Below are positions 20,378 through 43,420 of a stretch of DNA of 64,000 bases, piece after piece. The stretch lies in NCBI GenBank assembly GCA_942493245.1, contig OW818685.1, positions 4,066,040 through 4,130,039 of the forward strand. The letters run 5' to 3'. Under the pieces are notes generated by a model. The model had not been told where the DNA came from. It saw nothing but the letters and a program-made list of their open reading frames with translations, and did not search any database. The position numbers and the translations under genes were made by a program. This DNA comes from an uncultured Candidatus Sumerlaeota bacterium (lineage in GTDB: Bacteria > Sumerlaeota > Sumerlaeia > UBA8349). The first letter of the stretch is position 1. Each line of letters starts with the position of its first letter.

Positions 20378-20438
20378 TTGGTGCCGGGAGGGGGACTTGA
20401 ACCCCCACGAGATTTCTCCCACAAGATCCTTAGTCTTG
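20378..20438 (-). repeat. Left att site: 61-bp duplicate of tRNA-Leu 3' portion
   Basis: Identical to 63443-63503 over 61 bp; identity stops at the 5' base of the anticodon stem. Confidence 0.95.
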
Positions 20439-20498
20439 TGTGTTGTGTTGATTTCAGGCAGTAAATACGGGGTTTTTGTGATTTGATGGAGGGGGGTG

Positions 20499-20517
20499 TT
20501 ACATGATCCTTACATGA
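20499..20517 (+). promoter_or_regulatory. Candidate integrase arm-type site
   Basis: TTACATGA-tcc-TTACATGA; 17/19 identical to 63318-63336. Confidence 0.5.
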
Positions 20518-20607
20518 GAGGGGTGTTTTGGGGGGCTTCGGGAGGGAAAAAGGGGGAGTTGTCAAGGGGGGCTTGACAGGTGCGCGGCGCGGGAGCGGGG
20601 TGTTTTT

Positions 20608-21798
20608 TTATTGGGCTTCGGATTGGGTGTTGGGTTGGGTTTCGGTTTCGGGTTGGGGGGTGGGGGTCCAGAGTTGGGTGATGAGGGTGGGGAGGGTGGC
20701 GAGTTCTTCGGGGGAGATCTGGCGGTAGTGGCCTCCGAGGATGTCGGCGGGGGTGTGGCCCATGTAGGCTTTGACGAGGTCGCGGTCGGCTCCGGCCTGG
20801 GAGGTGGCGGTGGCGAAGGTGGCGCGGAGTTTTTTGGCGGGGATCTGGGCGAGTTGGGGTTTGTCGAGCGCGAGGGCGGCGGCTTTGAAGTAGCGGTTGG
20901 CTGCCTGGGAGAGGGTGTTGACTTTCCAGGGGCGTGCCCAGGAGGAAAGGAAGAGTTCGCCGGAGAGGGGGATAACTTTGCGGGTGTCTCGGGCGGTCTT
21001 GAGGGCGTCGAGGACGAATTGAGGCACCGGGAGGGTGCGGTAGGAGGTTTGATTTTTGGGGGTGTGGTGGGGGGTCTTGGTGACGGTGAGGGTGGATTTG
21101 TCGAAGTCGATGTCCTGTTCGCGGAGGGCGGCGGCTTCGAGTTGGCGGAGTCCGCAGGTGGCGGCGAGGAGTTGGAGGGGGTAGATGGTGTGGGCGTGGG
21201 GGTCGTCGCGGAGGTAGTCGAGGAGGGCGTGGGCGTCGTCGAGGGTGAGGCAGGTGATGTCGGGTCGGGGTCGGGAGCCGAGGGGGGTGCGCGGGAGGGG
21301 GTGAACGAGGTCGGGGTGGTCGTCGGCCATGAGGCGCCAGGCTTGGCGCACGACGGCAAGTCGGAGGCGGATGGTGTCGTAGGCGAGGTTTTGGGTTTGC
21401 ATGTCCTGGACGTAGTCGCGGAGCATGGAGGGTTTGAGTTGGTCGAAGGTTTGGATGGCGGGGTAGTGCTGGGTGAGGAAGGTGAGGAATTGGGTGGAGC
21501 GGTAGGCCATGTCTTTTCGGGCGGTGGGGCCGGTCTGGGAGAGTCGCATGGCCTGGGCGAGTGCGTCTTTGATGAGGGGGGCTTGGGGTTTTCCGGCGAG
21601 GTAGCCGCGTCCCTGGTAGATTTCGGTCTGGATGTGACGGGCAACTTTTTTCATGCCGTCTTCGGTGTCGTAGATGCGGCGGAGGACGTCTTTTCCGGTG
21701 AGGGGGTCGCGGTAGCGGAGTTCCCAGCGTTCGCGTCCGGCTGGGGAGGTGGCGAGTGTGGCGGTGATGATGCCGAGGTGGAGGCGTTTGATAAGCAT
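20608..21798 (-). CDS. int: Tyrosine recombinase (phage integrase)
   Basis: N-terminal WELRYRDPLTGK arm-binding-like; CGLR, PKN, KKLRATFAT, MGH...HY catalytic pattern; adjacent to att. Confidence 0.93.
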   Translation of the reverse strand: MLIKRLHLGIITATLATSPAGRERWELRYRDPLTGKDVLRRIYDTEDGMKKVARHIQTEIYQGRGYLAGKPQAPLIKDALAQAMRLSQTGPTARKDMAYRSTQFLTFLTQHYPAIQTFDQLKPSMLRDYVQDMQTQNLAYDTIRLRLAVVRQAWRLMADDHPDLVHPLPRTPLGSRPRPDITCLTLDDAHALLDYLRDDPHAHTIYPLQLLAATCGLRQLEAAALREQDIDFDKSTLTVTKTPHHTPKNQTSYRTLPVPQFVLDALKTARDTRKVIPLSGELFLSSWARPWKVNTLSQAANRYFKAAALALDKPQLAQIPAKKLRATFATATSQAGADRDLVKAYMGHTPADILGGHYRQISPEELATLPTLITQLWTPTPQPETETQPNTQSEAQ

Positions 21799-21846
21799 GG
21801 GGTCGGGTCCGTCTGGTTTTATTGTGGGGAGGGGGACCGGGGGGTG

Positions 21847-22218
21847 TCAAGTGTTTTTGATGCCGAGTTCGTCGAGGGAGAAGGCTCCGACTTTGGCGGG
21901 CGCGGGGGCGGTGGGGGGAATTTTGGGGGTGCGTTTGCGTCGGGGGCCGGGTTGGGGGTGGGGGTACACGGGCGAGACGCCCGTGCCACGTGAGGCACCA
22001 CTTTGGGGGGTGCTGGGGGGGTACACGGGCGAGAAGCCCGTGCCACTTTCGGCGTTGTCGAGGGCTTCGATGAGGTGTTGGCCCCAGAAGGCTTGTCGGA
22101 AGATTTTGCGGGGGGAGATGCGGGCGATGAACCGGTCGGCGTTGATGCCGAGTTGGGCAAGGATTTCGAGGAGGTCTTCGCGGGAGTAGAGGGTGTGGGG
22201 GTTGATGGTGATGGGCAT
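21847..22218 (-). CDS. Putative excisionase/HTH protein with REP-derived C-terminus
   Basis: Small basic protein (LYSREDLLEILAQLGI) directly upstream of int; contains two in-frame REP copies. Confidence 0.5.
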   Translation of the reverse strand: MPITINPHTLYSREDLLEILAQLGINADRFIARISPRKIFRQAFWGQHLIEALDNAESGTGFSPVYPPSTPQSGASRGTGVSPVYPHPQPGPRRKRTPKIPPTAPAPAKVGAFSLDELGIKNT

Positions 22219-22278
22219 GGGGGGAGGCCTCAATTGAGAATGGATAATGGATAATTGACAATGAACTGATGGGTGGTG

Positions 22279-22343
22279 CCGTTGCGTTGTTTTGTGTTGC
22301 GCAGCGTAGTTGCGTGGCGCGTCGCGTCGAGAAGCGCTGCGAG
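22279..22343 (-). ncRNA. Pentamer array D: 13 x NN-CRC units, candidate guide-like RNA
   Basis: + strand has G every 5 nt from 22284 to 22339; preceded (minus strand) by TGATTTTTC, ends AACGCAACGGCACCACCCA; RNA status is inferred. Confidence 0.55.
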
Positions 22344-22349
22344 GAAAAA

Positions 22350-22853
22350 TCAGTCGGTGATGGCTTTTTGGGTCATTTGGGCCGCGAGGGCGGACCAGTC
22401 GTTGTTTGCGGCGACTCGGGTTTCGAGTTTGCGCCGACTGCTTTCCTCGGTGAGGTGCGCGACGGCGCCCAGGAGGGCCAGGGTGGTGTTGTGCTGGATT
22501 TTGTCGGCGTTGTCGAGGTCGTCGTATTGGGCGCAGAGGATTTTGGCGATGCCGCGTCGGCAGGCGCGCCGGGTTTTTTTGATGGTGGCGTCTCCGGTTT
22601 TGAGGATGTCGCGGTTCTGGAGGCGCTTGTAGCCGATGGTGCGGACGCAGGCGAAGACGGCGCGATCCTCGCAGAGAACGGTGTGGAGGGCGGAGCGCAG
22701 GAGATGGGCGGCGTCGTGGCGGGTGTCGCGGTCGATGAGGCGTGAAAGTTCTTCGTGGGTGACGGTTTCTCCGGGCTGGGCCTGTCGAAGGCGGTCGGCC
22801 AGGATGAGGGTGAGGTGGGACTTTTCTGGGAGGGACTTGAGTTCGGGGGTCAT
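22350..22853 (-). CDS. Hypothetical winged-helix-like protein, partner of RAMP-like gene
   Basis: ATG 22853 with AAAGG upstream; ETVTHEELSRLI helix and VRTIGYKRL wing-like motif; 167 aa. Confidence 0.7.
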   Translation of the reverse strand: MTPELKSLPEKSHLTLILADRLRQAQPGETVTHEELSRLIDRDTRHDAAHLLRSALHTVLCEDRAVFACVRTIGYKRLQNRDILKTGDATIKKTRRACRRGIAKILCAQYDDLDNADKIQHNTTLALLGAVAHLTEESSRRKLETRVAANNDWSALAAQMTQKAITD

Positions 22854-22874
22854 GGTTTCAGCCTTTCTGGGGTG

Positions 22875-22934
22875 TCGTTGCGATGCGATGCGGGGCGAAG
22901 AGGCGCGAGGCCGGGCGCTGCGCTGCGACGCAGA
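22875..22934 (-). ncRNA. Pentamer array C: 12 x NN-CRC units
   Basis: + strand G at 22880,22885...22930; preceded by AGATTTTC; ends CGCAACGACACCCCA. Confidence 0.55.
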
Positions 22935-22979
22935 GGAAAATCTGGATCGCGCAAAGGCGCGAAGGCGCAAAGGAACGAA

Positions 22980-23059
22980 GTATTGCGTTGTGACGCGATG
23001 TGTAGATGTGCAGAGCGGGGCAGTGCGCAGCCATGTGGAGCGTAGCGGTGCGGTGTGGT
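22980..23059 (-). ncRNA. Pentamer array B: 16 x NN-(C)RC units
   Basis: + strand G at every 5th base 22980-23055; preceded by AGATTTC. Confidence 0.55.
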
Positions 23060-23095
23060 GAGAAATCTTTTGCATGGGCCTGTCCTTGGGTGTTG

Positions 23096-23160
23096 CCGTT
23101 GCGTTGAGGTGCGTTGCGAGGCGGCGCGGAGTAGTGCGCAGCGTTGTGGCGCGCGGTGGC
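23096..23160 (-). ncRNA. Pentamer array A: 13 x NN-CRC units directly after RAMP-like stop codon
   Basis: + strand G at 23101,23106...23156; preceded by TGATTTTTTC; ends AACGCAACGGCAACACCCA. Confidence 0.55.
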
Positions 23161-23167
23161 GAAAAAA

Positions 23168-23728
23168 TCATTCCCAGACGAGTTTCGAGACTTTAAAGCG
23201 TCCGTAGAATCCGCCGTTCTGGGGGCGGAAGCGGCCGATGCCCCGGAATTGGCCGGACTGCTCGAGGGTGTAGAGGAAAACGTCTTCGGTGATGGTGTCG
23301 TCGGTGACGTGGAAGGAGACGGTGCCGGACCATTTGTGGATGACGGGCATGCGGCGCATGACGCGCTTGCCGGAGCCTCGGAGGCCGTCGGCGTTGAGGA
23401 AGAGGTCTTCGAATTCGCAGTCGCGGGCTTTGATGGGCAGGACGAGGGGTTCGAGGACGAGAACGCCGGAGTTGAAGTTTTTGGTGTAGGTGGCTTTTCC
23501 TTTTCCGGGAACGGGCATGGAGAGATACTTGGCTCCATCCTGGACGCAGCGCATGAAGGCGGTGGGGGGGATGACGATGTGGCCTTCTTCGTTTGTGTGG
23601 AGGTGTCCCTGCCAGGTGCGTTTGTCGTAGGCGTCGGAGGATTCTTTTTCGATTTTCGGGGTGTTGTGAAAGCGGCTCTGGGAGTAGGGGGCGAGGCTTT
23701 CGAGCGTTGCTTGTGCGATGTGTGGCAT
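23168..23728 (-). CDS. Stand-alone RAMP/Cas7-like protein (186 aa)
   Basis: N-terminal strand ATLESLAPY, IPPTAFMRCVQDGA (cf. RAMP IPGSSLKG helix), C-terminal glycine-rich loop SGQFRGIGRFRPQNGGFYGRFKV; fold call by motif resemblance only. Confidence 0.65.
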   Translation of the reverse strand: MPHIAQATLESLAPYSQSRFHNTPKIEKESSDAYDKRTWQGHLHTNEEGHIVIPPTAFMRCVQDGAKYLSMPVPGKGKATYTKNFNSGVLVLEPLVLPIKARDCEFEDLFLNADGLRGSGKRVMRRMPVIHKWSGTVSFHVTDDTITEDVFLYTLEQSGQFRGIGRFRPQNGGFYGRFKVSKLVWE

Positions 23729-23761
23729 GGTGTGGGGATCCTTTCTGTGTGCGGTCGAGGC

Positions 23762-24787
23762 TCAGGCCTCGGGGGTTTGAACGCGGATGTTGAGTTTGAG
23801 GGCCGGGTGGCAGTTGCGGATGTAGTCGCCGTAGTTTTTCTGGACGAAGTCAACGGCAACGGGATCTTCTGTGGCGAGGTAGATGGTGCGTGGGGAGTCG
23901 AGGGTTTCGCCGAGGTACTCGAGGTTTTTGATCCAATTGATGTACTCGGTCTTTTTGATCAACTTGGCGAGGTGCGAGAGGGTGATGTTCCAGACGGAGG
24001 GGTTGTGGATGAGGTTTTCGGGGAGGGGTCCGGGGTAGTCGTCGTCTTCCTCGTCTTCCTCGATGTCGATTTCTTCGGGGTCTTGGGGTTCGGGTTCGAT
24101 GTCGAGGATTTGGGGCGCGGGGAGGGCGGCTGGTTGGTAGTCGAGGGTGAGCATGTCGGGGGTTTCGTCGTCGGGTTCGGAGGTTTCAGTGGGGGTTTCG
24201 GGGAGGTCGGTGTAGAGGGTGGTGTCGTTGTCGGGGGCGTCGAGGTTGGTGACGAGGGAGGCGAATCCGACGACGCGGGATCCGGGGGTTTTGGGGGTGT
24301 GAACTTCGGCGGTGAGGTGGGGCCAGTTGGGGTGTTCGCCGGTGGAGGCGTAGAGGGCGATTTCGAGGAAGTCGTGTTCGCGTCCAGTGGTGACGGCGAG
24401 TGCTTTGAGGAGGCGCTGGAGGATGGAAATGGAGGCGTTGAATTTTGCGATGGGCTTGGAGGTGGGGCGCAGGATGGAGAAGACGCCGGGGTAGGGTTCG
24501 GTGGATTCGGTGAAGTGGATGGCGACGGTGTTGGTGCGGATGACCAAGGTGTCGCCGTTGGCGATGAGTTGGGCGTCTCCGGCGCCGTCCACGGCGTGGA
24601 GGAATTCTTTGGCGTTGAGGAGGACGGGGGCGTCGGGGGATTCGAGTTGGGGTTCGTAGGTGGCGATGACGGCGATTTTGCCGTCGCATCCGCAGGCGCG
24701 GGCGTCTTCGATGTACACGTTCTGGATGCCGGGTCGGTCTTTGGAGGCGGCTTTGGCGGCGGCGATGATTTCGGGGGTGATGAGCAT
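23762..24787 (-). CDS. Hypothetical: beta-clamp-like N-terminus, acidic linker, DnaA-domain-I-like C-terminus
   Basis: ASKDRPGIQNVYIE...ACGCDG; EEDEEDDD; WIKNL...IYLATEDPVAVDFVQKNYGDYI. Confidence 0.6.
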   Translation of the reverse strand: MLITPEIIAAAKAASKDRPGIQNVYIEDARACGCDGKIAVIATYEPQLESPDAPVLLNAKEFLHAVDGAGDAQLIANGDTLVIRTNTVAIHFTESTEPYPGVFSILRPTSKPIAKFNASISILQRLLKALAVTTGREHDFLEIALYASTGEHPNWPHLTAEVHTPKTPGSRVVGFASLVTNLDAPDNDTTLYTDLPETPTETSEPDDETPDMLTLDYQPAALPAPQILDIEPEPQDPEEIDIEEDEEDDDYPGPLPENLIHNPSVWNITLSHLAKLIKKTEYINWIKNLEYLGETLDSPRTIYLATEDPVAVDFVQKNYGDYIRNCHPALKLNIRVQTPEA

Positions 24788-24863
24788 TTTGAGGGATTTC
24801 CTTTCGGTGGGGTACGTTTTTTTCTCACGCTAAGGCGCGAAGGCGCAAAGAACTGCATAGGAC

Positions 24864-26477
24864 TTATGGGACGGATGGGACCGATGGGACGGGTTCGAGA
24901 GCCTGGCCTTTTTGGATGACGGTGACGGATTCCGATGGGGTGGCGTCGGGGTCGACGAGGGTGAGGATGAGTTGGAGGTTGAGTTCGTCGGCGATCTGAC
25001 GCAGGGTTTGGCGGTTGTCGGGGTCGAGGGATTCGCCGTTGTCGATGAGGACGAATCCGCAGGCGGGGGCGAGGGTGGCGGCGATGGCGACGCCGACTTT
25101 GATCTGCTCGGAGTTGCTGAGGCAGTGGAGGGGTTTACCGTTGATGGCGATGTGCTCGGGCTGGATTTCGAGGCCGGGAATGGGGAGGTTCGCGGCGGCG
25201 AGGAGTTGTTTGGGGAGGGTGTCGCGGAAGAGGGTGACGAGGCCGGTGTAGAGGTCGCTGAGGCGCTTGGCTTCGGTGTGGGCGGCGTGGGCGCGGTCGT
25301 AGGCGTCCTGGGCGCGGCGGTTGTTGAGGTCGCGTTCGGTCTGGTCGAGTTGGGCGGCGAGAGAGGGGAGATCCACGGGCGAGACGCCCGTGCCACTTTG
25401 GGCAGCGTCGGCTTTGAGGGCGTCGAGTTCGGCTTGCTGGGCGTCGCGCTGTTCGTGGGTCTGGAGGAGGAGCCGGATGTCGTTGAGGGAGGTCTGGGCC
25501 TGGGCGCGGTTGTTGATGGCTTCGGTGTGGAGGCGCTGGATTCTGTCGAGTTCGTTGCGGAGTCGGTCTATCTCGATGGTGAGGGTCTGGAGGGAGGCAA
25601 TGGTGGTGTCGAGGTGGGACTGGAGTTCGTCGCGGGTGTAGGGGGGCTTGGTTTCGGCGATCTGGCGTTCGAGGGTTTCGATGCGGGCGGCTCGGGCGGC
25701 GTTGGCGTTGGCGTTTGTGTCGGCCTGGGCCTTGGCGGCGTAGTAGTCGTTGCGGGCGAGGGAGAGGAAGCGTTCGAGGTCGTCGAGGGGGATGTCGGGG
25801 GGCGCGGCGGTGGGGGGTGGGGTGTTTTCGAGGGTGAGGCGGGCCTGTTGGGCGGCGGCGTTTTTCTCCTGGCGGGCGTCGTAGATGAGGTCGTGGAGTT
25901 CTCGGCAGACTTCGATGGCGTGCTGGTCGAGGTTGACGCGGGAGAGGTCTTCGCCCAGGGCGGAGACGACCTGAATGTGATCGGGTCCGAGATCGGCGAC
26001 GGCTTGTTCGATTTCGGCTCGGGTGACAACGAGGGGGAGCGCCTCGATGAGCATGGAGCGCTGTTTGCGCAGGCGGTCCTTGAGGCCGCGCGAGTCTCCA
26101 CCGCCGAGTTTGGCGAAACCAATGGGGTCGAAGGTGATGGCGTTGACGATGGCCCGGAGTACGTCTTTGGCCTTGGCGACGGGGAATCCGTTGGCGTCGG
26201 TGACCATGAGGGTTTCGCTGCCGTTGGCGTGGGCGCGGCGGACGATGTAGTTGGAGAGGTTGAGGATGATTTCGGCGGAGTCTTCTCCGTTGCGGACGAG
26301 TTCGGGGTCGAGTCCCTGGAAGCAGGCGCGGATGGAGTCGAAGGAGGCTGTTTTGCCTTGTCCGTTGGCTCCGGCGATGGTGTGCTCGCGCTGGTCAAAA
26401 TTGATATGGATCTGGCGCAGGGATTTGATGTTGCTGGCCTGGAGGCTGAGGAGGCGGGTGGGGGTGGTGGTGGGCAT
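24864..26477 (-). CDS. SMC/Rad50-like AAA ATPase with coiled coil
   Basis: GANGQGKT Walker A, LSNSEQ signature, VLIDNGESLD Walker B/D-loop. Confidence 0.85.
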   Translation of the reverse strand: MPTTTPTRLLSLQASNIKSLRQIHINFDQREHTIAGANGQGKTASFDSIRACFQGLDPELVRNGEDSAEIILNLSNYIVRRAHANGSETLMVTDANGFPVAKAKDVLRAIVNAITFDPIGFAKLGGGDSRGLKDRLRKQRSMLIEALPLVVTRAEIEQAVADLGPDHIQVVSALGEDLSRVNLDQHAIEVCRELHDLIYDARQEKNAAAQQARLTLENTPPPTAAPPDIPLDDLERFLSLARNDYYAAKAQADTNANANAARAARIETLERQIAETKPPYTRDELQSHLDTTIASLQTLTIEIDRLRNELDRIQRLHTEAINNRAQAQTSLNDIRLLLQTHEQRDAQQAELDALKADAAQSGTGVSPVDLPSLAAQLDQTERDLNNRRAQDAYDRAHAAHTEAKRLSDLYTGLVTLFRDTLPKQLLAAANLPIPGLEIQPEHIAINGKPLHCLSNSEQIKVGVAIAATLAPACGFVLIDNGESLDPDNRQTLRQIADELNLQLILTLVDPDATPSESVTVIQKGQALEPVPSVPSVP

Positions 26478-26599
26478 TTTGGGGGCCTTTCTGGGAACCG
26501 ATTTTGTTTCACGCGAAGGCGCGAAGACGCAAAGGACTGCAAACTGCAACCGATTAACCGCATGGAACCACGGAAAACCGAGGAATACACGGAAACCGA

Positions 26600-27241
26600 T
26601 CAGCAGCGTTTGTTGCCGTGGTGGTGGGGCCGGAGGGTGTTGTAGTGGAGTTTGAGGTCGATGAGTTCGTCGAGGTGGTAGGCGCGGTTGTTGAGCCAGA
26701 GGGCGATGAGGGCGATAAAAAGGGACGGATTGATTTTGGATACTTCACAACAGACGAGAATCGAAGTCATGTCGAAGATGAAATCGGGAAACAATTGGCG
26801 TTCGTTAAAAAGGATGGACTTGACCTGTCTGAGGGAGTGGTCGAACTGTCCACAGTAGTCGAACATTCGCATGGCGGCGTCGGCGAGTTCGATGGGGATG
26901 CCCTGGAGTTTGTAGCCGTCGGCGACTTGCTTTTCGACTTCGGGTCGGATGTCTTCGGGGCTGTGGAGGCAGCAGAGTTCGGTCTCAATTTCGGGGTTGT
27001 ACCAGTAGATTTCGTAGATGGCGTAGCGAGCCCAGGGGGAGGTGTCGGGGTCGTTTTCGCGCACGGTGGCGAGGCGTCGGCGGTAGATTTCGAGGGCTTC
27101 GGCGAGTTCGGTGGCGATGAGGGCAAGGTGGGCTTTGGCGCTGAGGGGCTGGTCGTGCCAACCTTTGGCGGTGGCGGCGTCGTGGCAGCGTTGGGTGTAG
27201 ATGGCGAGGGTTTCGGGGGTGAGGAATTCGCGGAGGTTCAT
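26600..27241 (-). CDS. MazG-like nucleotide pyrophosphohydrolase
   Basis: LALIATELAEALE, GIPIELADAAMRMFD, KLHYNTLRPHHHGNK. Confidence 0.75.
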   Translation of the reverse strand: MNLREFLTPETLAIYTQRCHDAATAKGWHDQPLSAKAHLALIATELAEALEIYRRRLATVRENDPDTSPWARYAIYEIYWYNPEIETELCCLHSPEDIRPEVEKQVADGYKLQGIPIELADAAMRMFDYCGQFDHSLRQVKSILFNERQLFPDFIFDMTSILVCCEVSKINPSLFIALIALWLNNRAYHLDELIDLKLHYNTLRPHHHGNKRC

Positions 27242-27300
27242 GGGGTTGATTTCCTTTCATTTTTTTTCTCACGCGGAGGCGCGGAGACGCGGAGAACTGC

Positions 27301-28185
27301 TTAGTAGGGGATTTTGGGGACGGTGCCTGTCTGCATCAATAAGCCGTAGAGGGTGAGGATTTTCTGGTCTCGGGTGAGTTGTGGGTGTTGGAGGATCTGG
27401 TCGATTTCCTGGGCGAGTTCGTCGCGGCGGAAGGGGCCGGTGGTGTAGTTGTGGGTGAGGAGGGCGACGAGTTCGCGCTGGATGCGGACGTCGTTGGCGC
27501 AGTAGTCGAGGATGAGGTCGTACTGGCCGTCGAGCCAGAGGGCGTACACCATCGAGCCGTCTATTTCGCGTTCGGGGGACATGCCGGAGGGCGCGCCTTT
27601 TTTGAGGCCGAGGCCGGTGCGGGCGAGGGCGTCTTTGAGGCTGATGAAGGGGGAGCCGTTGCTGGGGAAGTTGGTCATGGTGTCGTAGGTGCGGCCGGTG
27701 AGGCGTCCGCGGTGGTAGGCGGGGAAGTGGCGGGGTGGGCGGACGCGGTAGCGGGCGAAGGCGAAGAGGAGGAAGGGGAGGTCGAATCCGTCGGAGTTGT
27801 GGCCGCACCAGACGAGTTCAGGGGTGGAGAAGGTTTCGCACCAGGCGGCGAATTCCTGGAGTCCGTCGTCGAGGGGCTGGCGCATGAGGTCGATGCGGGT
27901 GACGCCGTCGGCGTTGTCGGTGGCGGCGCAGATGCAGGCGATGTTGCCTCGGGTGGGGTCGAGGGCGGTTTTGGAGAGGGCTTCGGTGAAGCGGGCTTCC
28001 TTGGCTTCGGAGGTGTGCCAGGCTTCTTTGAGGGCGACGCGGGTGTTGGAGAGGGGTTCTTTGGTGTAGGCGTCGGTGCGGATCTGTTCGATCTGCTGGG
28101 GGTCGGTGGTGGGGAGGGTTTCGATGTCGAGGGTGAGGGCGCGGGGGGCGGTGGTGTGGGCGGAGGGGATGACGAGGAATGGCAT
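27301..28185 (-). CDS. DEDD-family 3'-5' exonuclease (PolB-exo/DnaQ-like)
   Basis: LDIET (ExoI), GHNSDGFDLPFL (ExoII), YCANDV (ExoIII). Confidence 0.85.
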   Translation of the reverse strand: MPFLVIPSAHTTAPRALTLDIETLPTTDPQQIEQIRTDAYTKEPLSNTRVALKEAWHTSEAKEARFTEALSKTALDPTRGNIACICAATDNADGVTRIDLMRQPLDDGLQEFAAWCETFSTPELVWCGHNSDGFDLPFLLFAFARYRVRPPRHFPAYHRGRLTGRTYDTMTNFPSNGSPFISLKDALARTGLGLKKGAPSGMSPEREIDGSMVYALWLDGQYDLILDYCANDVRIQRELVALLTHNYTTGPFRRDELAQEIDQILQHPQLTRDQKILTLYGLLMQTGTVPKIPY

Positions 28186-28243
28186 GGTGTGGGTTTCCTT
28201 TCTTTTTTGAACCACGGAAAACACGGAATACACGGAAACTGCG

Positions 28244-28993
28244 TCAGGCGGTTGGGGGGTCGGGGGTGATTTCTTCGGCGATGTGGTTGCCGTCTTTTTC
28301 CCAGTGTTTGACGCCGAACTGCTCGTCTGGCTGGAGGATGAGGGGGACGGTGGGGTTGCCGGTGGTGGCGGTGAGGATCTGGTCGATTTTGGCTTTGTTG
28401 GCGGGGGTGAGGCGCGGGAGGGCGGCGACGGTCTGGGTGAGTTTTTCGGCGTTGTTGCGGAAGGGGGCGGCGGTGATGCTGTCGCCTTCGGGGGTCTGGC
28501 AGAGGAATTCGATGGTGAGGGCGCCGTTGTATTTTTTGAGGGTGACGACGAGGACGCGGGCGGTTTTGGTTTCGCGGGGCGCGCCAAAGGACTTGGAGGG
28601 GAATTCGGAGCGGACCTGGGCGTGGGGATCGAGGGACAGGAGGTAGTTTTTGAGGGTGGCGGGGTTGGTGTTGCCGGAGAAGCGGAGTTGCATGAGGGCG
28701 CCGCCGATGACGGCGTCGAGGGAGATGGATTCGAGTTTGGGGGTGGGACTCATGGGCGAGACGCCCATGCCACTTCCGGCGGGGTTCATGGGCGAGACGC
28801 CCATGCCACTGTCCGGGGTGGGGTTGAAATGGGGCGCAGGAGCGAAACTGGCGGGGCTGGTGGCGCGTTCGGGGGAGGGCGCGGGTGTCGGGGCGTTGGC
28901 GGGGGTCTGGGGGTTTGTGGGGGCGGCGTTGGATTGGGCGGAGAAGAGGGCGCCGAGGGTGTTGGGACCGAGTTGGGTGTTAAGGGGGGGCAT
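28244..28993 (-). CDS. Hypothetical phage protein with two in-frame REP copies
   Basis: ATG 28993; Pro-rich N-terminus with SGMGVSPM twice, globular C-terminal half. Confidence 0.7.
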   Translation of the reverse strand: MPPLNTQLGPNTLGALFSAQSNAAPTNPQTPANAPTPAPSPERATSPASFAPAPHFNPTPDSGMGVSPMNPAGSGMGVSPMSPTPKLESISLDAVIGGALMQLRFSGNTNPATLKNYLLSLDPHAQVRSEFPSKSFGAPRETKTARVLVVTLKKYNGALTIEFLCQTPEGDSITAAPFRNNAEKLTQTVAALPRLTPANKAKIDQILTATTGNPTVPLILQPDEQFGVKHWEKDGNHIAEEITPDPPTA

Positions 28994-29095
28994 GGTGTGT
29001 GGGCCTTTCTGGGGGGTTTTTATTTCACGCAAAGGCGCGAAGTCGCAAAGCACCGCGGGGAAACCACGGAAGACACGGAATACACGGAAACTGTG

Positions 29096-29938
29096 TTACG
29101 GGGACGCGAGGGTGATGCAGGCTTTGGATACGTCGGCGAAGTGGGCGAGGTTGTTGCGTCCGAGGCTGAGGGTGAATTTGTCGGCGGGGTTGGCGGCGGC
29201 GAGGTGGATGCTGTCGTCGGTTTCGTCTTCGCCGAGGTAGGTGGCGCGTTCGGCTGCGGCGAGGAGGAGGGTGTAGTCGGGTTCGGTGGCGGCGAGGGTG
29301 CGCAGGGATTCGAGGGCGGCGATCCAGGCGCGGGGGTTTTGGGTGAGTTCAATCTCCCCCTCTGCACTCCCCCTCTTTTCAGGGTTAGGGATATAGGTAG
29401 TTTTACTATTCCCATTCCCATTCCCATTCCCTGCCCGCGCGCGGGAGAGTGAGTTTTTTTGGATTTTTTCGGAATCGTTTTTTTGAGCCTTGCGTTCTCT
29501 ATCGTAAACTCTTTTCTGATAGCGTTTCAGGTACCGGCGGCAGGTGATGCGGAAAATGTGCGGAATGTCGCTGGAAAAATCGGGAATCCCGAGTGAGAAT
29601 TTTGGAAGGTGTAAAATCGTGTCACTGAGGGAGATGAGATTTCCGTTTTCGTCCACGGGGTTCTGGATCTCGAATTTCCCGGTTTTGGGGTCTTGAATTT
29701 CGACGATTCCGGCGGTGTGGATGGCAATCTGGTAGATGGTGTTGAGCATCTCATTTTGTCCGGCTCGGCAGTTGCGGGCGAGGCTGTTTACGGTGCCGGT
29801 GAGGGAGTGGTTCTGGTCTTTGCACATGAGCATGAGCATTTCGTGCCAGCCGCCTTTGGCTTGGAGGTCGAGCGCTCCGACGCATTTGTCGCCGAGCCAG
29901 TCATCTACGGACCATTGTTCGAGGGAGGGTTTTCCCAT
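29096..29938 (-). CDS. Putative replication initiator (YdaU/DUF1376-like N-terminus, DnaA-domain-I-like C-terminus)
   Basis: QWSVDDWLGD..ALDLQAKGGWHEML; RARAGNGNGNGN linker; AWIAALESLR..YLGE..IHLAAAN. Confidence 0.65.
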   Translation of the reverse strand: MGKPSLEQWSVDDWLGDKCVGALDLQAKGGWHEMLMLMCKDQNHSLTGTVNSLARNCRAGQNEMLNTIYQIAIHTAGIVEIQDPKTGKFEIQNPVDENGNLISLSDTILHLPKFSLGIPDFSSDIPHIFRITCRRYLKRYQKRVYDRERKAQKNDSEKIQKNSLSRARAGNGNGNGNSKTTYIPNPEKRGSAEGEIELTQNPRAWIAALESLRTLAATEPDYTLLLAAAERATYLGEDETDDSIHLAAANPADKFTLSLGRNNLAHFADVSKACITLASP

Positions 29939-29940
29939 TT

Positions 29941-30375
29941 TCAGGCTTCTTTCGTTTCAGTATTGAGCAGGGTGCGGATCTGGTCGAGGGTGGGGCCGAT
30001 CTGGGATTGGCCCTGACAGACGATTACCGGGATTCCGTACCGGGCGTAGCGCTGGTATTGCTGGCTGGCTCGTTCGGCTGTCTTGCGGGCGTAGAGGCCG
30101 GTGTGGGCGGTGCGCTGGCGTTTGACTTCGATGAGGGCGACGGGGGTGTCCACGGGGGACAGACCACCGTTTTCATAATGCACAAAGGCGCGGCGGTAGA
30201 TGACGAGGTCGAGCCGGGCGGCGCGCGTGCCCGAGTCGGGAGAGTTGGCGGTGACTTCGGCGTGGACGTGGTAGCCGAGTGAGAGGAGGCTCTGGTAGAG
30301 GGCGCTCTGGATCTCGAATTCGGAGGGGGCGTCGGGGTGGGGGATGGTGGTGTGGCGGTTGAGGGAGGTGATCAT
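29941..30375 (-). CDS. PD-(D/E)XK nuclease-like protein
   Basis: SEFEIQ, RLDLVI, LIEVK, QYQRY. Confidence 0.7.
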   Translation of the reverse strand: MITSLNRHTTIPHPDAPSEFEIQSALYQSLLSLGYHVHAEVTANSPDSGTRAARLDLVIYRRAFVHYENGGLSPVDTPVALIEVKRQRTAHTGLYARKTAERASQQYQRYARYGIPVIVCQGQSQIGPTLDQIRTLLNTETKEA

Positions 30376-30770
30376 TGGGGTGGCTCCTGGGACGTATGGG
30401 ACGTAGGGGACACAGAGGACGCGGTGAGGCGTTGTTTGTGCCGGAGGTTGCGTTGTCGGGCGATGATGAGGTCGGCCTGGTCGTAGGTGAGGTGGGCGAG
30501 GTCGGGGACTTTGTAGGCGGTGAGGACGGCCTGGAGATCGGTGCCGGTGGTGGCGATGAGGAGTTCGATGCGTTCGATCTGGTGCGAGGTGCTGGGGACG
30601 GGCTGGCCTTCGAGTGCGGCTCGGTTGTAGATTTCGACGCGGGTGACGGCGTCGTGGAGGTAGGCGTGCTGGAGTGTCCAGGCGGGTGTGTCGCGATGGG
30701 CGGCGATGAGGTCTTTGGCCTCGATGAGGAGTTCGTTGAGGTGGTAGAGGGCGACGGCTGGGTCGATCAT
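30372..30770 (-). CDS. Hypothetical phage protein
   Basis: Overlaps neighbours by 4 nt at both ends. Confidence 0.65.
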   Translation of the reverse strand: MIDPAVALYHLNELLIEAKDLIAAHRDTPAWTLQHAYLHDAVTRVEIYNRAALEGQPVPSTSHQIERIELLIATTGTDLQAVLTAYKVPDLAHLTYDQADLIIARQRNLRHKQRLTASSVSPTSHTSQEPPQ

Positions 30771-31060
30771 TTTGGGGCGCCTTCGGTGGTTGGTTGTGTC
30801 TCACGCGGAGACGCGGAGGCGCGGGGAACCGATACCGATGGCTCACGCAAAGGCGCGGAGGCGCAAAGGAGGGTGTTGGCTTCTTCGCAGAGGTTGAGGA
30901 GTACGTTTTTGGTCTGGAAGACAATGGTGCGGGGGGTGCCGTTTTTGGGGTCGGCGTCGTGCATGTAGAGGAGCGCGGCGCGGGTGAGGCGGTTGAGGAG
31001 GTCGAGGGTGCGCTGGGTCTTGCGGGCGTCGTGGCAGCGGTAAACGGGTGTGTCAGGCAT
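30767..31060 (-). CDS. Hypothetical phage protein with repeat-derived C-terminus
   Basis: Coupled start/stop; last third encoded by spacer-type repeats 30800-30870. Confidence 0.55.
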   Translation of the reverse strand: MPDTPVYRCHDARKTQRTLDLLNRLTRAALLYMHDADPKNGTPRTIVFQTKNVLLNLCEEANTLLCASAPLREPSVSVPRASASPRETQPTTEGAPK

Positions 31061-31226
31061 GGGGGTTCTCCCTTGTGTACTCTTCCTTCAGGCGTCCGAG
31101 GAGAGCCTCGGCGTTGGTGATCGTGGGGTGTTTCCATCCATCTTTCAGCGCTTGTTGGTGCTCGTGCTTCCACAGAGAGATCAAGCCCTCCGAGCACTGA
31201 ATCAGCAGAAAAACGTCGTCAGTCAT
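31053..31226 (-). CDS. Small hypothetical protein (57 aa), not in ORF track
   Basis: MTDDVFLLIQCSEGLISLWKHEHQQALKDGWKHPTITNAEALLGRLKEEYTRENPHA; 8-nt overlaps with both neighbours. Confidence 0.6.
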   Translation of the reverse strand: MTDDVFLLIQCSEGLISLWKHEHQQALKDGWKHPTITNAEALLGRLKEEYTRENPHA

Positions 31227-31410
31227 GATCGGTCTCCTGGTCGGATTTCGGCTCGTGGTTGTTGCATGGAGAGAACGGGTCGAGGACTATGATGTCTTTC
31301 TGTGCGCAAGGGAAGAAAAGGCCGGAATTTTCCGGTTTGTGTCGGCACAGAAGGCACGAGTTCGGATACTCGCGTTCAATTTCTTGTTTTTCTTCGGGGG
31401 TCAGTGACAT
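31219..31410 (-). CDS. Small Cys-rich protein (63 aa)
   Basis: CLLC...C...C..H pattern; coupled to neighbours. Confidence 0.6.
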   Translation of the reverse strand: MSLTPEEKQEIEREYPNSCLLCRHKPENSGLFFPCAQKDIIVLDPFSPCNNHEPKSDQETDHD

Positions 31411-32102
31411 GGGAAATTCTCCTGTTCGGATTCGCCGTCGGGGTAGTAGGTTTCGGTGTAGTCGAGGGCGAGTTGGAGTTGGGTGTGGCTGGGGGGTCGG
31501 GGGTTGAATGCGGCGTGGAGGAAGCGGCCGATTTTATGGAAAAAAGGAACCAGGAGGGCGCGCAGGGATGAGGCTTTGAGGGCGTAGTAGAGTTGGTGGA
31601 GGAGGGGCGCCTGGCGTCCGGAGGTGAGGGTGGACAGGGGGTGGGTTGGGATGTTGTGAACGGGGATGGAGGCGGAGAAGGGATTACGAATTACGAATTG
31701 ATCTGGTTCGCGCAAAGGCGCAGAGTCGCCAAGGGACGCAAGGGAGTTGAATCCGGCAGAGGTGGCGCAAAGGGGAATTTGGCATGCGTCGGCTGCGGAG
31801 AGATAGGTCAAAAATGGGTGGAAGAGGGCATCGCTGCCGGTTGGGGTTGAGAGCAGTATGGGGGGGACTGGTTCGTGAGAGAGGGCAAACCAGGTAGTCT
31901 GGAGGAGGTCGAGGATTCGGGCGGCTGAGGCGTGGGAGATGTCGTCGCCCTGGCCGTTGATGATGCGGGCGATGGTGGAGTAGGCGAGTTTGGCTTTTTC
32001 GTGGAGATCGTTGTGGGTGAGTCTGAGTTCGTGGAGGCGTCGGGCGATGTTGGCGGCGACGATGGGGGTGATGGTTTTGCCGGTGGTGTGGTAGATGCCC
32101 AT
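31401..32102 (-). CDS. XRE-family HTH protein (early regulator)
   Basis: LTHNDLHEKAKLAYSTIARIING. Confidence 0.7.
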   Translation of the reverse strand: MGIYHTTGKTITPIVAANIARRLHELRLTHNDLHEKAKLAYSTIARIINGQGDDISHASAARILDLLQTTWFALSHEPVPPILLSTPTGSDALFHPFLTYLSAADACQIPLCATSAGFNSLASLGDSAPLREPDQFVIRNPFSASIPVHNIPTHPLSTLTSGRQAPLLHQLYYALKASSLRALLVPFFHKIGRFLHAAFNPRPPSHTQLQLALDYTETYYPDGESEQENFPCH

Positions 32103-32262
32103 GTGGGTGTCCTCCTGGGGGGTTTGGTTTGGGGGGAGGCCGTCAGTCTCCCCCCTGCTGAGTTTTCCGTGGCATGTCCCTATCCAAAACTTAAGGAGCA
32201 TGTGACCCGCGCCGAAGGCTAACGGGCTTGACGGCGGTTTTTGCCTTTGACAAGCGTGTGGG

Positions 32263-32529
32263 TTAGGTGGTGGTGGGGTCGATAGGCGGATCTCCTGGGA
32301 TGGGGGTTTGGGGGTCAACCGATGGGGACTTTTGTCCCTGGCGCTCGGCAATGAGGGTTTCAAGGGCGGTTTGGATCTTAAAGAAAGTCTGGATTCCGGG
32401 ATTCTGAACACGCCCGCTTTCGATTGCGTGGATCGTTGTTTTGGGTACTCCAGATGTGATTGCGATTTTTTCCAACGTTATTTTGGGCTGTACGGAGTTG
32501 CGTTTTAACAGCATTTCAAGAGCGTTCAT
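32263..32529 (-). CDS. Cro-like XRE HTH regulator
   Basis: ITLEKIAITSGVPKTTIHAIESG; divergent from repressor. Confidence 0.8.
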   Translation of the reverse strand: MNALEMLLKRNSVQPKITLEKIAITSGVPKTTIHAIESGRVQNPGIQTFFKIQTALETLIAERQGQKSPSVDPQTPIPGDPPIDPTTT

Positions 32530-32558
32530 GGTGTCCCCTTTCGCGTGCAACGAGGGCT

Positions 32559-32586
32559 ATAGTACGAAATATCGAACCGATGTCAA
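32559..32586 (-). promoter_or_regulatory. Leftward lytic promoter with overlapping operator
   Basis: TTGACA-N16-TACTAT; imperfect palindrome GTACGAAATATCGAAC 32562-32577 in spacer. Confidence 0.55.
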
Positions 32587-32655
32587 GAGGAAAAGTACGA
32601 GATTCGGAAAAAAATAATATTGCGCCGATGCGGGAAGTTTACTATTTTGTACTTT

Positions 32656-33324
32656 ATGAATGAAATCAACGCTCTGTATCACACGCTGATTTTAAAACTG
32701 ATGGAGGACCGAAAGATTCCTCCCAAGGAAGTTTATTTGTCGGCGGATGTAAAGAAGGTCACGTTTTATAACTTCATTAACGGTGAAAACAGCATATCTG
32801 TGGAGCGTTTTGGGCGTATTTGTGCGGCTTTAGGGTTGGATCTTGAGGGTTTTCTGAAAAGTGGCGGAGAGTTGCCTTGTGTGGATGAAAAGGGTTCTGC
32901 TCCTATCCCTTGTTTCGGGAGTGTTGAGGCGGGTCGTACAAATGGATTTGTGGATATAGAGATTACGAAAGACTCTCTGAAGGATGTGCCAAAGGTTTCA
33001 GCCTCGCGGGAACGGCTGAAAAAGGGTCTTCGGGGTGGGTCGTTGCTGGATGTGGTGGCGTTGACTGTCAGGGGGGACAGTATGGAGCCGTTGTTCCAGG
33101 AGGATGACGTAGTGTTTGTGCATCAGAATGAAACCCTGAAGGATTTACGGCATCGGGATATTGTCGTGATGGATTTGGATGGTTTGGGGTCGTACACAAT
33201 AAAGCAGTGGCATAAGGAAGGGTTATTGGTGGCCTTGAATCCGAAGCATGACGCGATTGTGCTGAAGAAGTGTCCGGGGTGGCGTCTGTTTGGGCGTGTG
33301 ATTGGGATGGATAGGGTTTATTGA
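32656..33324 (+). CDS. CI-like repressor, HTH + S24 (LexA-type) peptidase
   Basis: N-terminal HTH, VEAG cleavage site, VRGDSMEP serine, TIKQ lysine. Confidence 0.9.
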   Translation: MNEINALYHTLILKLMEDRKIPPKEVYLSADVKKVTFYNFINGENSISVERFGRICAALGLDLEGFLKSGGELPCVDEKGSAPIPCFGSVEAGRTNGFVDIEITKDSLKDVPKVSASRERLKKGLRGGSLLDVVALTVRGDSMEPLFQEDDVVFVHQNETLKDLRHRDIVVMDLDGLGSYTIKQWHKEGLLVALNPKHDAIVLKKCPGWRLFGRVIGMDRVY

Positions 33325-33353
33325 GTTTCAATCTGAGGAAAAGGGGGTTTATC

Positions 33354-33905
33354 ATGGCTTTGATCGAGTGTCCGGATTGCAAGGAGCAGGTGTCGAGTGA
33401 TGCGCCTTCCTGCCCAAAGTGCGGGAAACCGATGCCGGGAAAGAAAAGTCCGCCAGCGATGTCGTTGGTTGGGAAGATTGGCACAACGATTTTGATGATT
33501 TTTCTTTGTCTGCTGGGGCTTGGGATGTGCAAGGATGCCATCACTCCAGACGCGAAACCGAAAGCCGATGTGGCTTCAGCGGATAAAAAACCGACTCCAA
33601 CGCCTCGCCCGGAAGTGATTCTGAAGCCAAATGTCCGATATATGCTGGGTAATATCACAGTGACGAATGAGAATGATTTTGACTGGACGGACGTGGAGTT
33701 GGAGTTGAATAGCGGGACGTTTTCGAGTGGGTATAAACTCAACGTTCCTGTGATTCCAGCGAGAGGAAGCGCGGCGTATTTGGTTACTCAGTTTTGCAAA
33801 AGCGATGGGCTGAAGTTTAACCCGCAAGCGTTCAAGCCGGTGAAGATGTCGATTGACTGCAAGACGAAAAATGGGGATGGGTTCACTGTGGTGGGCTGGC
33901 AGTGA
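33354..33905 (+). CDS. Zinc-ribbon + TM + periplasmic domain protein (lysogeny accessory)
   Basis: CPDC..VSSDAPSCPKCG, hydrophobic segment ILMIFLCLLGLG. Confidence 0.8.
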   Translation: MALIECPDCKEQVSSDAPSCPKCGKPMPGKKSPPAMSLVGKIGTTILMIFLCLLGLGMCKDAITPDAKPKADVASADKKPTPTPRPEVILKPNVRYMLGNITVTNENDFDWTDVELELNSGTFSSGYKLNVPVIPARGSAAYLVTQFCKSDGLKFNPQAFKPVKMSIDCKTKNGDGFTVVGWQ

Positions 33906-33955
33906 TTTTTTGTTTTCAACGTGGAAGGGGTGGATTCTGATCTGGAGGGGTGGCG

Positions 33956-34777
33956 ATGTCGCGCTTTTTCTCGGTTTTCGTTGTGGTGTTTGTCTTGCTG
34001 TGCCCGGCTGGGTTTGCAGAGGAATTCAAGGGGAAGTGCGTGGGGGTGACGGACGGGGATACGATTTCGGTGATGCGCGAGGGGAAGGCGGAGAAGGTGC
34101 GGTTGTATGGGATCGACTGCCCGGAGGTGGGCCAGCCGTTCGCGACGAAGGCGAAGCAGGCGACTTCGGATTATGTGTTTGGGAAAGAGGTGACGGTTAA
34201 GAGTGCGGGGAAGGATCGGTATGGGCGAACGATTGGGGTGGTGTTGCTGCCGAACGGGTCGGGTTTGAATGTGGCGCTGGTGAATGGTGGTCTGGCGTGG
34301 CATTACAAGGCTTACTCGAAGGAGAAGGCGCTGGCGGATTACGAGGTGAAGGCTCGGGAGGCGAAGCGGGGGGTGTGGTCGCAGGATTCGCCGGTTGCGC
34401 CGTGGGATTTTCGGAAGGATCGGAAGCGGGATCATGATGATTTGAGTGTGGGATCTGGTCTTGTGGCGGAGGCTGAGGCCACGACGGCGTCTGTGCGGGT
34501 TGAGGAGGAGGAAAAAGGGGCTGTCCCGGGGGCGCATGTGGAGGAGTCGGTTGTGAGGGCGGCTCCGGTTCGGGCTGCGGCAGGGGTGCAAAAAAGGGGT
34601 TATGCCGGGCGGCAGGCTGTGCCGATGGCGGGCGGGGATCGGACTGTTTATTTGTCTCAGGAGGGGAATAAATATCATCGTTTTGGGTGTGGGACGTTGA
34701 AAAAGACGCCTATTGCTGTTCCTTTGAGTCAGGCTATTCGGGCGGGAAGAGGGGCTTGTGGCGTTTGTAAGCCGTAG
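33956..34777 (+). CDS. Secreted thermonuclease (SNase) with C-terminal Ada-type metal-binding domain
   Basis: Signal peptide; VTDGDTI, VRLYGIDCPE, DRYGRTIG, GLAWHY; KYHRFGC..ACGVCKP. Confidence 0.9.
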   Translation: MSRFFSVFVVVFVLLCPAGFAEEFKGKCVGVTDGDTISVMREGKAEKVRLYGIDCPEVGQPFATKAKQATSDYVFGKEVTVKSAGKDRYGRTIGVVLLPNGSGLNVALVNGGLAWHYKAYSKEKALADYEVKAREAKRGVWSQDSPVAPWDFRKDRKRDHDDLSVGSGLVAEAEATTASVRVEEEEKGAVPGAHVEESVVRAAPVRAAAGVQKRGYAGRQAVPMAGGDRTVYLSQEGNKYHRFGCGTLKKTPIAVPLSQAIRAGRGACGVCKP

Positions 34778-34803
34778 AGTTTGAGGAAGAGGTGAAGAGG
34801 CAA

Positions 34804-34840
34804 GCCGCTCGGGTTTTGTGTCTGGGCGGTTCTTTTTTTT
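34804..34840 (+). terminator. Intrinsic terminator ending cI-moron transcript
   Basis: GCCGCTCGG/CTGGGCGGT stem then T-run. Confidence 0.7.
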
Positions 34841-34850
34841 GTGCGGGGGG

Positions 34851-34880
34851 TTGACAAAGTAAGCGACTTCGCTTATGAGT
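34851..34880 (+). promoter_or_regulatory. Candidate late promoter with palindromic operator
   Basis: TTGACA 34851-56; TAAGCG-actt-CGCTTA 34860-75; weak -10 TATGAG. Confidence 0.45.
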
Positions 34881-35095
34881 GTACTTGCCCTTGACAAGCA
34901 CGTGACCATTCGGTCGCGCAAACGTGCTTCTCAGGGGCTTTTTCTTTATGGGTTCTCCCATCGTATCTTTATCCACACCATGTGTTTCCTCTACTAAATC
35001 AGAGGTGCCCACCGGCCTGCTGACCATCAGGCTATTGTCCCGCCTTAACCCGAAAAAGCCCCTGGGATCACTGTTTGTGCGTGGGGGTGGCTGAT

Positions 35096-35470
35096 ATGCC
35101 GATGCGGCCCAGACGAGCGTGTGAATATGTGGGCTGTCACTCTCTGGCTGTGGAGGGGCGGCGGCGTTGTGCTGAGCATCATGTGCAGAGCAAGAAGGAG
35201 TACTACCGCGAGGTGGCTGCTGTGCGGGGCACGACGAAGGAGCGTGGATATGCTGGGGCGTGGCCTCATGTGAGGCGGATGAAATTGTCTCTGAATGCGT
35301 GGTGCGAATGGGTGGGCTGTGAGGAGCAGGCTGTTGAAGTACATCACAAAACAAAGATCCGGGGCGGGGGGACGCATGAGATGAGCAATCTGGTTTCGTT
35401 GTGCGTGTGCCATCACCATGAGGTTGAAAATACGGGGGTGTTGATGCTTGATCCGTCCTCTGAGGCATAG
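35096..35470 (+). CDS. Terminase-associated HNH endonuclease
   Basis: RGY...W, WCEWVGC..AVEVHH..GGTHEMSNLVSLCVCHH. Confidence 0.9.
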   Translation: MPMRPRRACEYVGCHSLAVEGRRRCAEHHVQSKKEYYREVAAVRGTTKERGYAGAWPHVRRMKLSLNAWCEWVGCEEQAVEVHHKTKIRGGGTHEMSNLVSLCVCHHHEVENTGVLMLDPSSEA

Positions 35471-35700
35471 AGCGCTGTATGTGGTGTGTTGTGGGCTGGC
35501 CGTGGTGGTGGGCGCAGCCTGACGCGGGGGTAGGGGGGTAATTTTGCTCCCGGAAAACCACTGATGACCCAGCCCGCCTACACTAGAGGGAGAATAGATT
35601 TCCTGGGGTTTCTTGTTTTTGGGGTGTGGTTTGGGTGTGGGGTGGGGTGGGGCCGGGGGTGGGTGGATGGCTGAAAATTATGGGGTTTGAGGAGGGTGGA
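35471..35700. other. Probable packaging (cos) region
   Basis: Non-coding G-rich gap between HNH and terS; position typical of HNH/P27-terS cos phages; exact site not identifiable. Confidence 0.3.
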
Positions 35701-36159: not shown

Positions 36160-36181
36160 TATCCCGACCAAGTCCGAGAAG

Positions 36182-37953: not shown

Positions 37954-37956
37954 GGA

Positions 37957-40397: not shown

Positions 40398-40434
40398 GAA
40401 TACCACGAAAGACACGGAAGAGGAGGAATAGGAA

Positions 40435-43418: not shown

Positions 43419-43420
43419 GG

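Follow-up and report, generated by a model that had tools for sequence, protein, structure and literature searches.

Within a 64,000-nucleotide stretch of an uncultured Candidatus Sumerlaeota bacterium (assembly GCA_942493245.1, contig OW818685.1, positions 4,066,040 to 4,130,039; hereafter the window, to which all coordinates refer), a temperate phage integrated at a tRNA-Leu gene carries two small genes together with four arrays of pentanucleotide units. The locus is best explained, with a probability of roughly 0.8, as a VIPR module whose guide repeats are of the C-R-C type. VIPR (Viral Interference Programmable Repeat) is known from two preprints of 2026 (bioRxiv 10.64898/2026.04.26.720920 and 10.64898/2026.04.26.720927; hereafter the VIPR preprints). 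In the text of these preprints, the system consists of a small RAMP protein (Vipr), an accessory gene (vap) and RNAs of about 100 nucleotides (nt), termed vrRNAs, that are composed of 9-16 YNNGG repeats and a 3' tail. One protomer is described to bind each repeat, with a thumb and a G-loop that sequester the GGY bases, while the NN bases pair with double-stranded DNA (dsDNA) in such a way that every third base is skipped and transcription is silenced. Competing phages and satellites are given there as the natural targets.

The Vipr protein and its accessory partner

The first gene of the module encodes a protein of 186 amino acids (aa), which by sequence and predicted fold is a RAMP of the Vipr family. 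It matches the PDB entry 36pp, 'SUSP1 Vipr protein', with E=3.1e-5 (phmmer against the PDB sequence set), and a profile built from 37 family members matches the same entry with E=4.5e-10. The open reading frame (ORF) has no match in Pfam and corresponds over its full length to phrog_4652 (function unknown; E=1.6e-13). An AlphaFold (AF2) model computed from the family alignment has a pLDDT of 92.6 and shows the thumb hairpin as well as the loop GIGRFRPQNGGFYGRF, and its best Foldseek matches are type VII Cas7 and Csm3/Cmr4 (E=1.5e-7, TM about 0.55); a structural comparison with Cas7, Csm3 and Vipr had been proposed in an earlier reading of the same DNA (the original prediction, made from the letters alone). 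All 28 residues that are invariant in the family are kept in the window protein, and the reading frames of vipr and of its partner are intact. With homologues from Felixounavirus and from phage LESphi2 the protein shares about 22-26% identity. The family is large, as a word-indexed search returned 511 proteins and an exhaustive search 2,780 clusters (50% identity) at E<=0.001, of which 575 remain at E<=1e-30; 235 relatives were found on viral contigs of IMG/VR.

The second gene, which is vap-like, codes for 167 aa and is, as far as conservation and modelling can tell, a conserved winged-helix-like accessory partner of Vipr. A homologue adjoins vipr in 65 of 120 related loci (tblastn), nearly always directly downstream and on the same strand. 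A word-based search with the partner protein alone gave no matches, and its database homologues were retrieved using an alignment built from the related loci. In the AF2 model (pLDDT 92.1), an N-terminal helix-strand-helix-helix-hairpin arrangement of the winged-helix layout is followed by a helical domain. Foldseek matches to this model are weak (best E=0.065) and nearly all to winged-helix DNA-binding domains, and six of 37 partner homologues have a weak match to the winged-helix Pfam domain of MGMT (DNA_binding_1). The predicted DNA-binding-like fold thus fits the vap genes that the preprint calls 'predicted DNA-binding'.

Four arrays of pentamer units

The arrays comprise 54 units in total, all on the minus strand like the local genes, and each array keeps an unbroken 5-nt register. 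In the direction of transcription of the genes, vipr is followed by arrays A, B and C, then by the partner gene and array D, so that the arrays fill two non-coding stretches between and after the genes. Of the 54 units, 51 have C at position 5, 50 have a purine at position 4 (38 G and 12 A) and 44 have C at position 3, whereas positions 1 and 2 are filled by 14 different dinucleotides. This gene order and the counts of 51, 50 and 44, made by hand in the original prediction, were reproduced exactly, and its statement that the constant triplet is C-R-C and not GGY is true on the probable RNA strand. When in-phase GYG or CRC was counted per 12 consecutive pentamers on both strands of the whole 64 kb, values of at least 7 occurred at arrays A-D only, with at most 6 anywhere else on either strand.

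The motif GATTTYYC directly abuts the first unit of all four arrays (coordinates in Table 1), and occurs just 17 times in 128 kb, counting both strands. In arrays A and D, the first bases of this leader complete the TGA stop codon of vipr and vap, respectively. It might be speculated that the U-rich GAUUUYYC leaders are cleavage (RNase) or start sites, and they may also be the end of the preceding unit. At the 3' ends of arrays A, C and D, AA units are followed by a flank resembling CA(M)CACCCA. The sense-strand RNAs of the arrays are predicted to be weakly structured, with -15 to -24 kcal/mol and no better than shuffled sequences, and neither for these RNAs nor for the conserved 3' end did the prediction give a significantly stable fold (z between -0.1 and +1.4). 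Such weakly structured RNAs would suit a guide that is bound in a filament, which is indirect support for a guide function. The antisense RNAs of arrays A and D, the two that were folded, reach -32 and -38 kcal/mol. No Rfam family was matched at the locus or in 20 related loci, so there is no hammerhead or other known RNA in them.

A microsatellite has been rejected as the identity of the arrays, and so has a CRISPR array: no repeat-spacer array was found by TRF, and there are no cas genes in the neighbourhood, as had also been noted originally. Among ten ORFs scanned with PADLOC, no cas or known defence model was matched, except for generic ATPase matches of an SbcC-like gene.

Table 1. Features of the VIPR locus and of the surrounding prophage (NN series are given in the order of the units on the minus strand)
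Feature	Position	Strand	Description
vipr	23168..23728	-	186-aa solo RAMP (Cas7-like); thumb hairpin ~residues 105-130; G-loop GIGRFRPQNGGFYGRF, residues 163-178
Array A	units 23160..23096 (n=13); with leader 23096..23169	-	Leader GATTTTTTC at 23169..23161; 3' flank CAACACCCA; NN: GC CG GC AA TG AC TC GC CT AA AC AA AA
Array B	units 23059..22980 (n=16); with leader 22980..23067	-	Leader GATTTCTC at 23060-23067; NN: AC AC AC TA TC AT TG AC CC TC AC TA AT GT AA AA
Array C	units 22934..22875 (n=12); with leader 22875..22942	-	Leader GATTTTCC at 22935-22942; 3' flank CACCCCA; NN: TC GT AG AG CC CT GC TT CC AT AT AA
vap-like gene	22350..22853	-	167 aa; N-terminal winged-helix-like domain ~residues 10-77 and helical C-terminal domain
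Array D	units 22343..22279 (n=13); with leader 22279..22351	-	Leader GATTTTTC at 22344-22351; 3' flank CACCACCCA; NN: CT AG TT GA GA GC GC TA TG AA AA AA AA
341-aa protein gene	23762-24787	-	Directly upstream of vipr; DnaA_N-like C-terminal domain
SbcC/AAA_23-like ATPase gene	24864-26549	-	phrog_1499
Prophage	20378..63503	.	43.1 kb, bounded by 61-bp direct repeat
61-bp direct repeat (att)	20378-20438 and 63443-63503		3' part of tRNA-Leu
Integrase	20608-21798	-	
Portal gene	38245-39666	+	
Major head gene	40435-41724	+	
Heptad clusters	22232-22258, 37957-37990, 42534-42560, 47760-47786, 47905-47931	+	
9-mer examples	38096-38122, 40404-40421, 52935-52961	+	
REP-like hairpin sites	2976-2998, 3060-3082, 21967-21989, 22024-22046, 25374-25396, 28751-28809, 43486-43589, 49750-49772		

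Related loci and the probable strand of the guide

The 120 related loci, 40 of which come from species-representative genomes and 80 from IMG/VR, were oriented with vipr on the plus strand, and arrays were called in them by an unbiased period-5 information scan. Arrays adjoining vipr, for which the original prediction had proposed a survey of homologues, could be called in 88 loci, with 68 arrays upstream and 93 downstream of the gene. On the vipr sense strand, the constant triplet of these loci is GGC, which corresponds to the published GGY, in 30 cases, CGC in 23, GAC in 15, CTC in nine and CAC in three, and a few of the remaining loci have GTC, GTT, GAT or GGT. In phage LESphi2, which is related to the published Pseudomonas clade, the arrays are of the GGC/NN kind and run in sense to vipr. 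In L124, which belongs to the closest relatives of the window locus (61% identity), GGC and CGC units are even mixed in a single array, and the arrays of these closest relatives are also ragged. The non-GGY handle of the window locus is real, but common among the relatives.

With few exceptions, the arrays are read in the same sense as vipr, and across all grammar types they share a polarity, in that AA makes up 60-67% of the dinucleotides at the second-last and third-last units versus 4-12% at the 5' end (arrays of CGC loci, for instance, end in ...CGCAACGCAACG, and those of GRC loci in ...GACAAGACAAGG). The window arrays have the same polarity with AA at the 3' end, including the AA-rich 3' units of array A. 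As the GGC-type arrays lie on the vipr sense strand and the polarity is common to all grammar types, the RNA strand is most probably the gene-sense strand. The same-strand rule is strong but not absolute. In the Rhodospirillales locus L026, an array at 3473-3557 upstream of vipr reads GCG/NN on the vipr sense strand and corresponds to a reversed CGC-type array, and in two loci of the GTC kind the arrays may be of GAC type in reverse orientation. In loci with Vipr proteins that are 98.5-100% identical (L110 and L111 of the CGC type, L083 and L084), the triplet is kept and the NN series are unrelated, which points to a turnover of guides. By position, strand, register and polarity, sequence comparison thus identifies the four window arrays as homologous to the vipr-flanking arrays of the relatives, including those of GGC/NN loci.

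A side observation from the survey concerns a Polyangiales metagenome-assembled genome (L006), where tRNA-like minihelices lie between GGC-type vrRNA arrays (2331-2401 and 2487-2545). They combine a T-arm (GGTTCGAnTCC, loop of 7 nt) with a stem that resembles an acceptor, and one copy has a CCA; this suggests processing of the array by RNase P/Z. They were called neither by Rfam nor by ARAGORN, which detected no tRNA in any of 46 related loci. The VIPR preprint text mentions arrays interspersed with hammerheads, but not an arrangement of this tRNA-like type.

Co-variation of the triplet with Vipr residues

Across the family, the triplet varies together with a few residues of the protein, which, like the unrelated NN series beside near-identical Vipr proteins, speaks for guides that the protein reads. 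A G at triplet position 2 goes along with R166 (47 of 48) and E107, and an A at this position with F, V, S or M at residue 166 in several separate branches. At triplet position 1, G is paired with V111, P112 and F127 (43-45 of 45), and C with either N112 or the combination of L111 and Y127. With R166, E107 and N112, the window Vipr agrees with the C-G/A-C arrays at its side. In a profile alignment to SUSP1 Vipr, R166 corresponds to D177, F167 to W178, R168 to R179 and M127 to R138, and in the VIPR cryo-EM paper all four of these SUSP1 residues are reported to contact the GGY bases.

On a neighbour-joining tree of 78 sequences, the triplet changed at least 26 times by parsimony; its position 1 changed at least eight times, compared to about 25 times with shuffled labels. 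The signal is thus partly phylogenetic, and yet there are repeated switches. Judged from these sequences, the constant triplet in this Vipr clade is a handle that differs by lineage and changes together with residues of the protein. More tentatively, and with slightly less than even odds, the triplet may be an evolvable handle (position 1 G/C, position 2 G/A/T, position 3 C/T) that tracks the G-loop residue 166 and the thumb-base residues 111, 112 and 127; if these residues set the acceptance of the guide, there would be mutually orthogonal protein-guide pairs.

Comparison with known systems

The description of VIPR in the original prediction, namely a RAMP-like protein with GGY/NN repeat RNAs and a gapped DNA target, is accurate according to the preprints. 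The window locus shares with type II VIPR, as in Escherichia phage SUSP1 and a Pseudomonas fulva prophage, the small solo RAMP with thumb and G-loop, the module of two genes, one of them an accessory gene with predicted DNA binding, several same-strand arrays of 12-16 pentamers (three constant and two hypervariable bases) that flank the genes, and a location in a phage or prophage without cas genes or a CRISPR array. It differs in that the triplet is C-R-C instead of G-G-Y, so that the constant motif GGY (YNNGG) is absent, and in that the arrays lie between vipr and vap as well as after vap. Also the 3' ends are different, as SUSP1 VIPR has a pseudoknot tail, whereas the window arrays end in two to four AA units and a short CA(M)CACCCA flank with no significantly stable structure predicted.

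Position by position, C-R-C matches G-G-Y with G1 replaced by C. The VIPR authors, in the preprint text and Methods, distinguish seven types and allow for 'a related consensus' with the alternative repeats NNNGG, YNNNG and NNNNG. In the YNNGG register, the window units read C-NN-C-G/A, where Y3 and mostly G2 are kept, but G1 is not, and the CRC grammar is thus probably covered by the 'YNNNG' alternative. The triplets GAC, CTC, CAC and GTT of the relatives lose G2 and fit none of the three alternatives. From the original proposal of a related system with a different grammar, the different grammar has therefore stood, but not the separate system: the locus belongs to the VIPR family itself, in whose clade variant triplets are common and GGC-type loci occur as well, so that the grammar is a variation inside the family, and its kind is already known.

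The Cas7 backbones of class 1 systems (type VII Cas7, Csm3, Cmr4) are the best structural match, with the same RRM/RAMP fold, and by analogy they would also share the principle of one subunit per fixed RNA step with a thumb that flips bases out. Their sequence identity is about 12%, however, and the window has no CRISPR repeats and no Cas5, Cas6, Cas10 or Cas1-2. Furthermore, the step in VIPR is 5 nt with three bases sequestered, as compared to 6 nt with one flipped base in Cas7, and the published VIPR target is dsDNA read in a gapped code.

Proposed mechanism and alternative explanations

By analogy to the published systems, the arrays would be transcribed on the gene-sense (minus) strand, probably in a leftward operon as judged from the SUSP1 work, and the transcript would be cleaved to yield four vrRNAs, each some 80-100 nt long. 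Every pentamer would be bound by a single protomer of Vipr, with thumb and G-loop holding C-R-C and presenting the NN dinucleotides, and the resulting filament of 12-16 protomers would read 36-48 bp of dsDNA as NNxNNx... with a 1-nt skip and repress the target, in which the winged-helix partner may assist. A role against competing phages, as envisaged in the original prediction, would likewise be taken over from the published systems; no target was found for this locus.

Several observations weigh against a VIPR module with CRC-type guides. The arrays are fairly degenerate, with perfect NNCRC in 38 of the 54 units, and the published structure accounts for a G at position 1, while the window arrays have a C there; the co-variation of triplet and residues is partly confounded by phylogeny. 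Upstream of the arrays, the sense strand has no detected promoter-like site, the sole minus-strand match of the sigma70 scan being inside the vipr ORF, and the sigma70 and terminator scans of the locus were altogether uninformative. Finally, no target under the 1-nt skip rule was found in the window, in 0.9 Mb of related phage DNA, in IMG/VR or in the JGI metagenomes. In detail, when the NN series of arrays A-D were compared to the window with skips of 0-3, the arrays alone were matched, at skip 3; 158 guides from related loci matched the 0.9 Mb no better than shuffled guides did, whatever the skip, but this DNA set is too small to test the rule; and the exact gapped patterns of A, B, C and D had no match in IMG/VR, nor that of B in the JGI metagenomes. 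With a seed of 8 units from array B, 44 matches were obtained in IMG/VR, which on extension were all chance (at most 6 of 12). As the complete host genome and its phages are not among the sequences covered, these negative results carry little weight.

The degeneracy and the failure to find targets could also mean that the locus is a decaying relic, in which an intact Vipr is accompanied by arrays that no longer give working guides, and the ragged arrays of the closest relatives would agree with this. Such a decay is unlikely, as both reading frames and all 28 invariant residues are intact and each of the four arrays has kept its register, with GATTTYYC in front of the first unit and AA units at the 3' end, and frequent internal degeneracy is ascribed also to working vrRNAs in the VIPR preprint text. 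Still less probable is that the functional RNA is made from the opposite (plus) strand with a GYG/NN grammar. GYG is superficially nearer to GGY, and a plus-strand site at 22234-22262 with weak resemblance to a sigma70 promoter (9 of 12 matches) is aimed into array D, but this site exists at array D only, and the far more structured antisense RNAs of A and D would be a poor fit to a filament-bound guide. Moreover, canonical GGC loci carry their arrays on the vipr sense strand, and CGC arrays agree with them in strand, register and 3' AA-unit polarity.

The lowest probability of all, a few percent, is assigned to the arrays acting not as RNA guides but at the level of DNA or protein, either as iteron-like sites for the winged-helix partner or the DnaA_N-like protein encoded upstream of vipr, or as a translated N-terminal extension of the partner in ORF 22350-23171. 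Binding sites should be conserved, and the NN dinucleotides are the opposite, hypervariable even where two loci encode identical proteins; none of the 120 related loci has a homologue of the DnaA_N-like gene, and the homologous published arrays are, in the preprint text, RNAs that co-purify with Vipr. The extension had been raised as an alternative in the original prediction, since ORF 22350-23171 is open through arrays A-C, but a period of 5 cannot hold a reading frame, and 21 database homologues of the partner have 160-172 aa, in line with the 167 aa that start at the ATG at 22853. The 273-aa reading is thus an artefact of the C-rich strand, on which stop codons are rare. A VIPR module with CRC-type guide repeats is the explanation that accounts best for the locus as a whole.

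Prophage context and neighbouring elements

The prophage, which besides integrase, portal and major head genes also encodes tail genes, has the VIPR module 0.5 kb from its integrase end, amid a run of minus-strand genes. The 341-aa gene directly upstream of vipr probably lies outside the module, as none of the 120 related loci contains a homologue of it.

Three further repeat elements were observed. Tandem heptads of the form AATGGAY/AATTGAY occur in clusters of 3-5 (17 matches, with 0.6 expected), and one cluster, situated just past array D on its 3' side, overlaps the weak promoter-like site on the plus strand; the clusters may serve the prophage as operators or promoter elements. Tandem 9-mers (CACGAAAGA/CACGAAAAA) are present at 15 sites on the plus strand from 28213 to 55795 (15 matches, with 0.06 expected), and several of the sites checked are 15-125 nt 5' of late-gene starts, such as 40404-40421, which precedes the major head gene, and 52935-52961, which precedes the ORF at 52993, so these 9-mers may be a leader or regulatory element. 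A REP-like hairpin (CACGGGCGAGACGCCCGTGCCAC) has 10 copies and is common to the host flank and the prophage; two copies are within ORF 21847-22233, between array D and the integrase.

Significance

The locus reveals no new kind of system, but VIPR is a newly described way of RNA-guided DNA reading, and each annotated natural locus helps to set its limits. The C-R-C arrays beside an intact Vipr, with support from the whole family, indicate that GGY is not a requirement for the part of the repeat that the protein binds. The most interesting by-product is the diversity of handles in the family and their co-variation with G-loop and thumb residues. If protein-guide pairs are indeed mutually orthogonal, co-resident phages would avoid loading each other's guides, and engineers would gain VIPR scaffolds without cross-talk, for which the window locus would be a C-first example. 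The survey names the G-loop and thumb residues that may set the specificity for the handle, and thereby leads to testable hypotheses on RNA recognition and to orthogonal VIPR tools.

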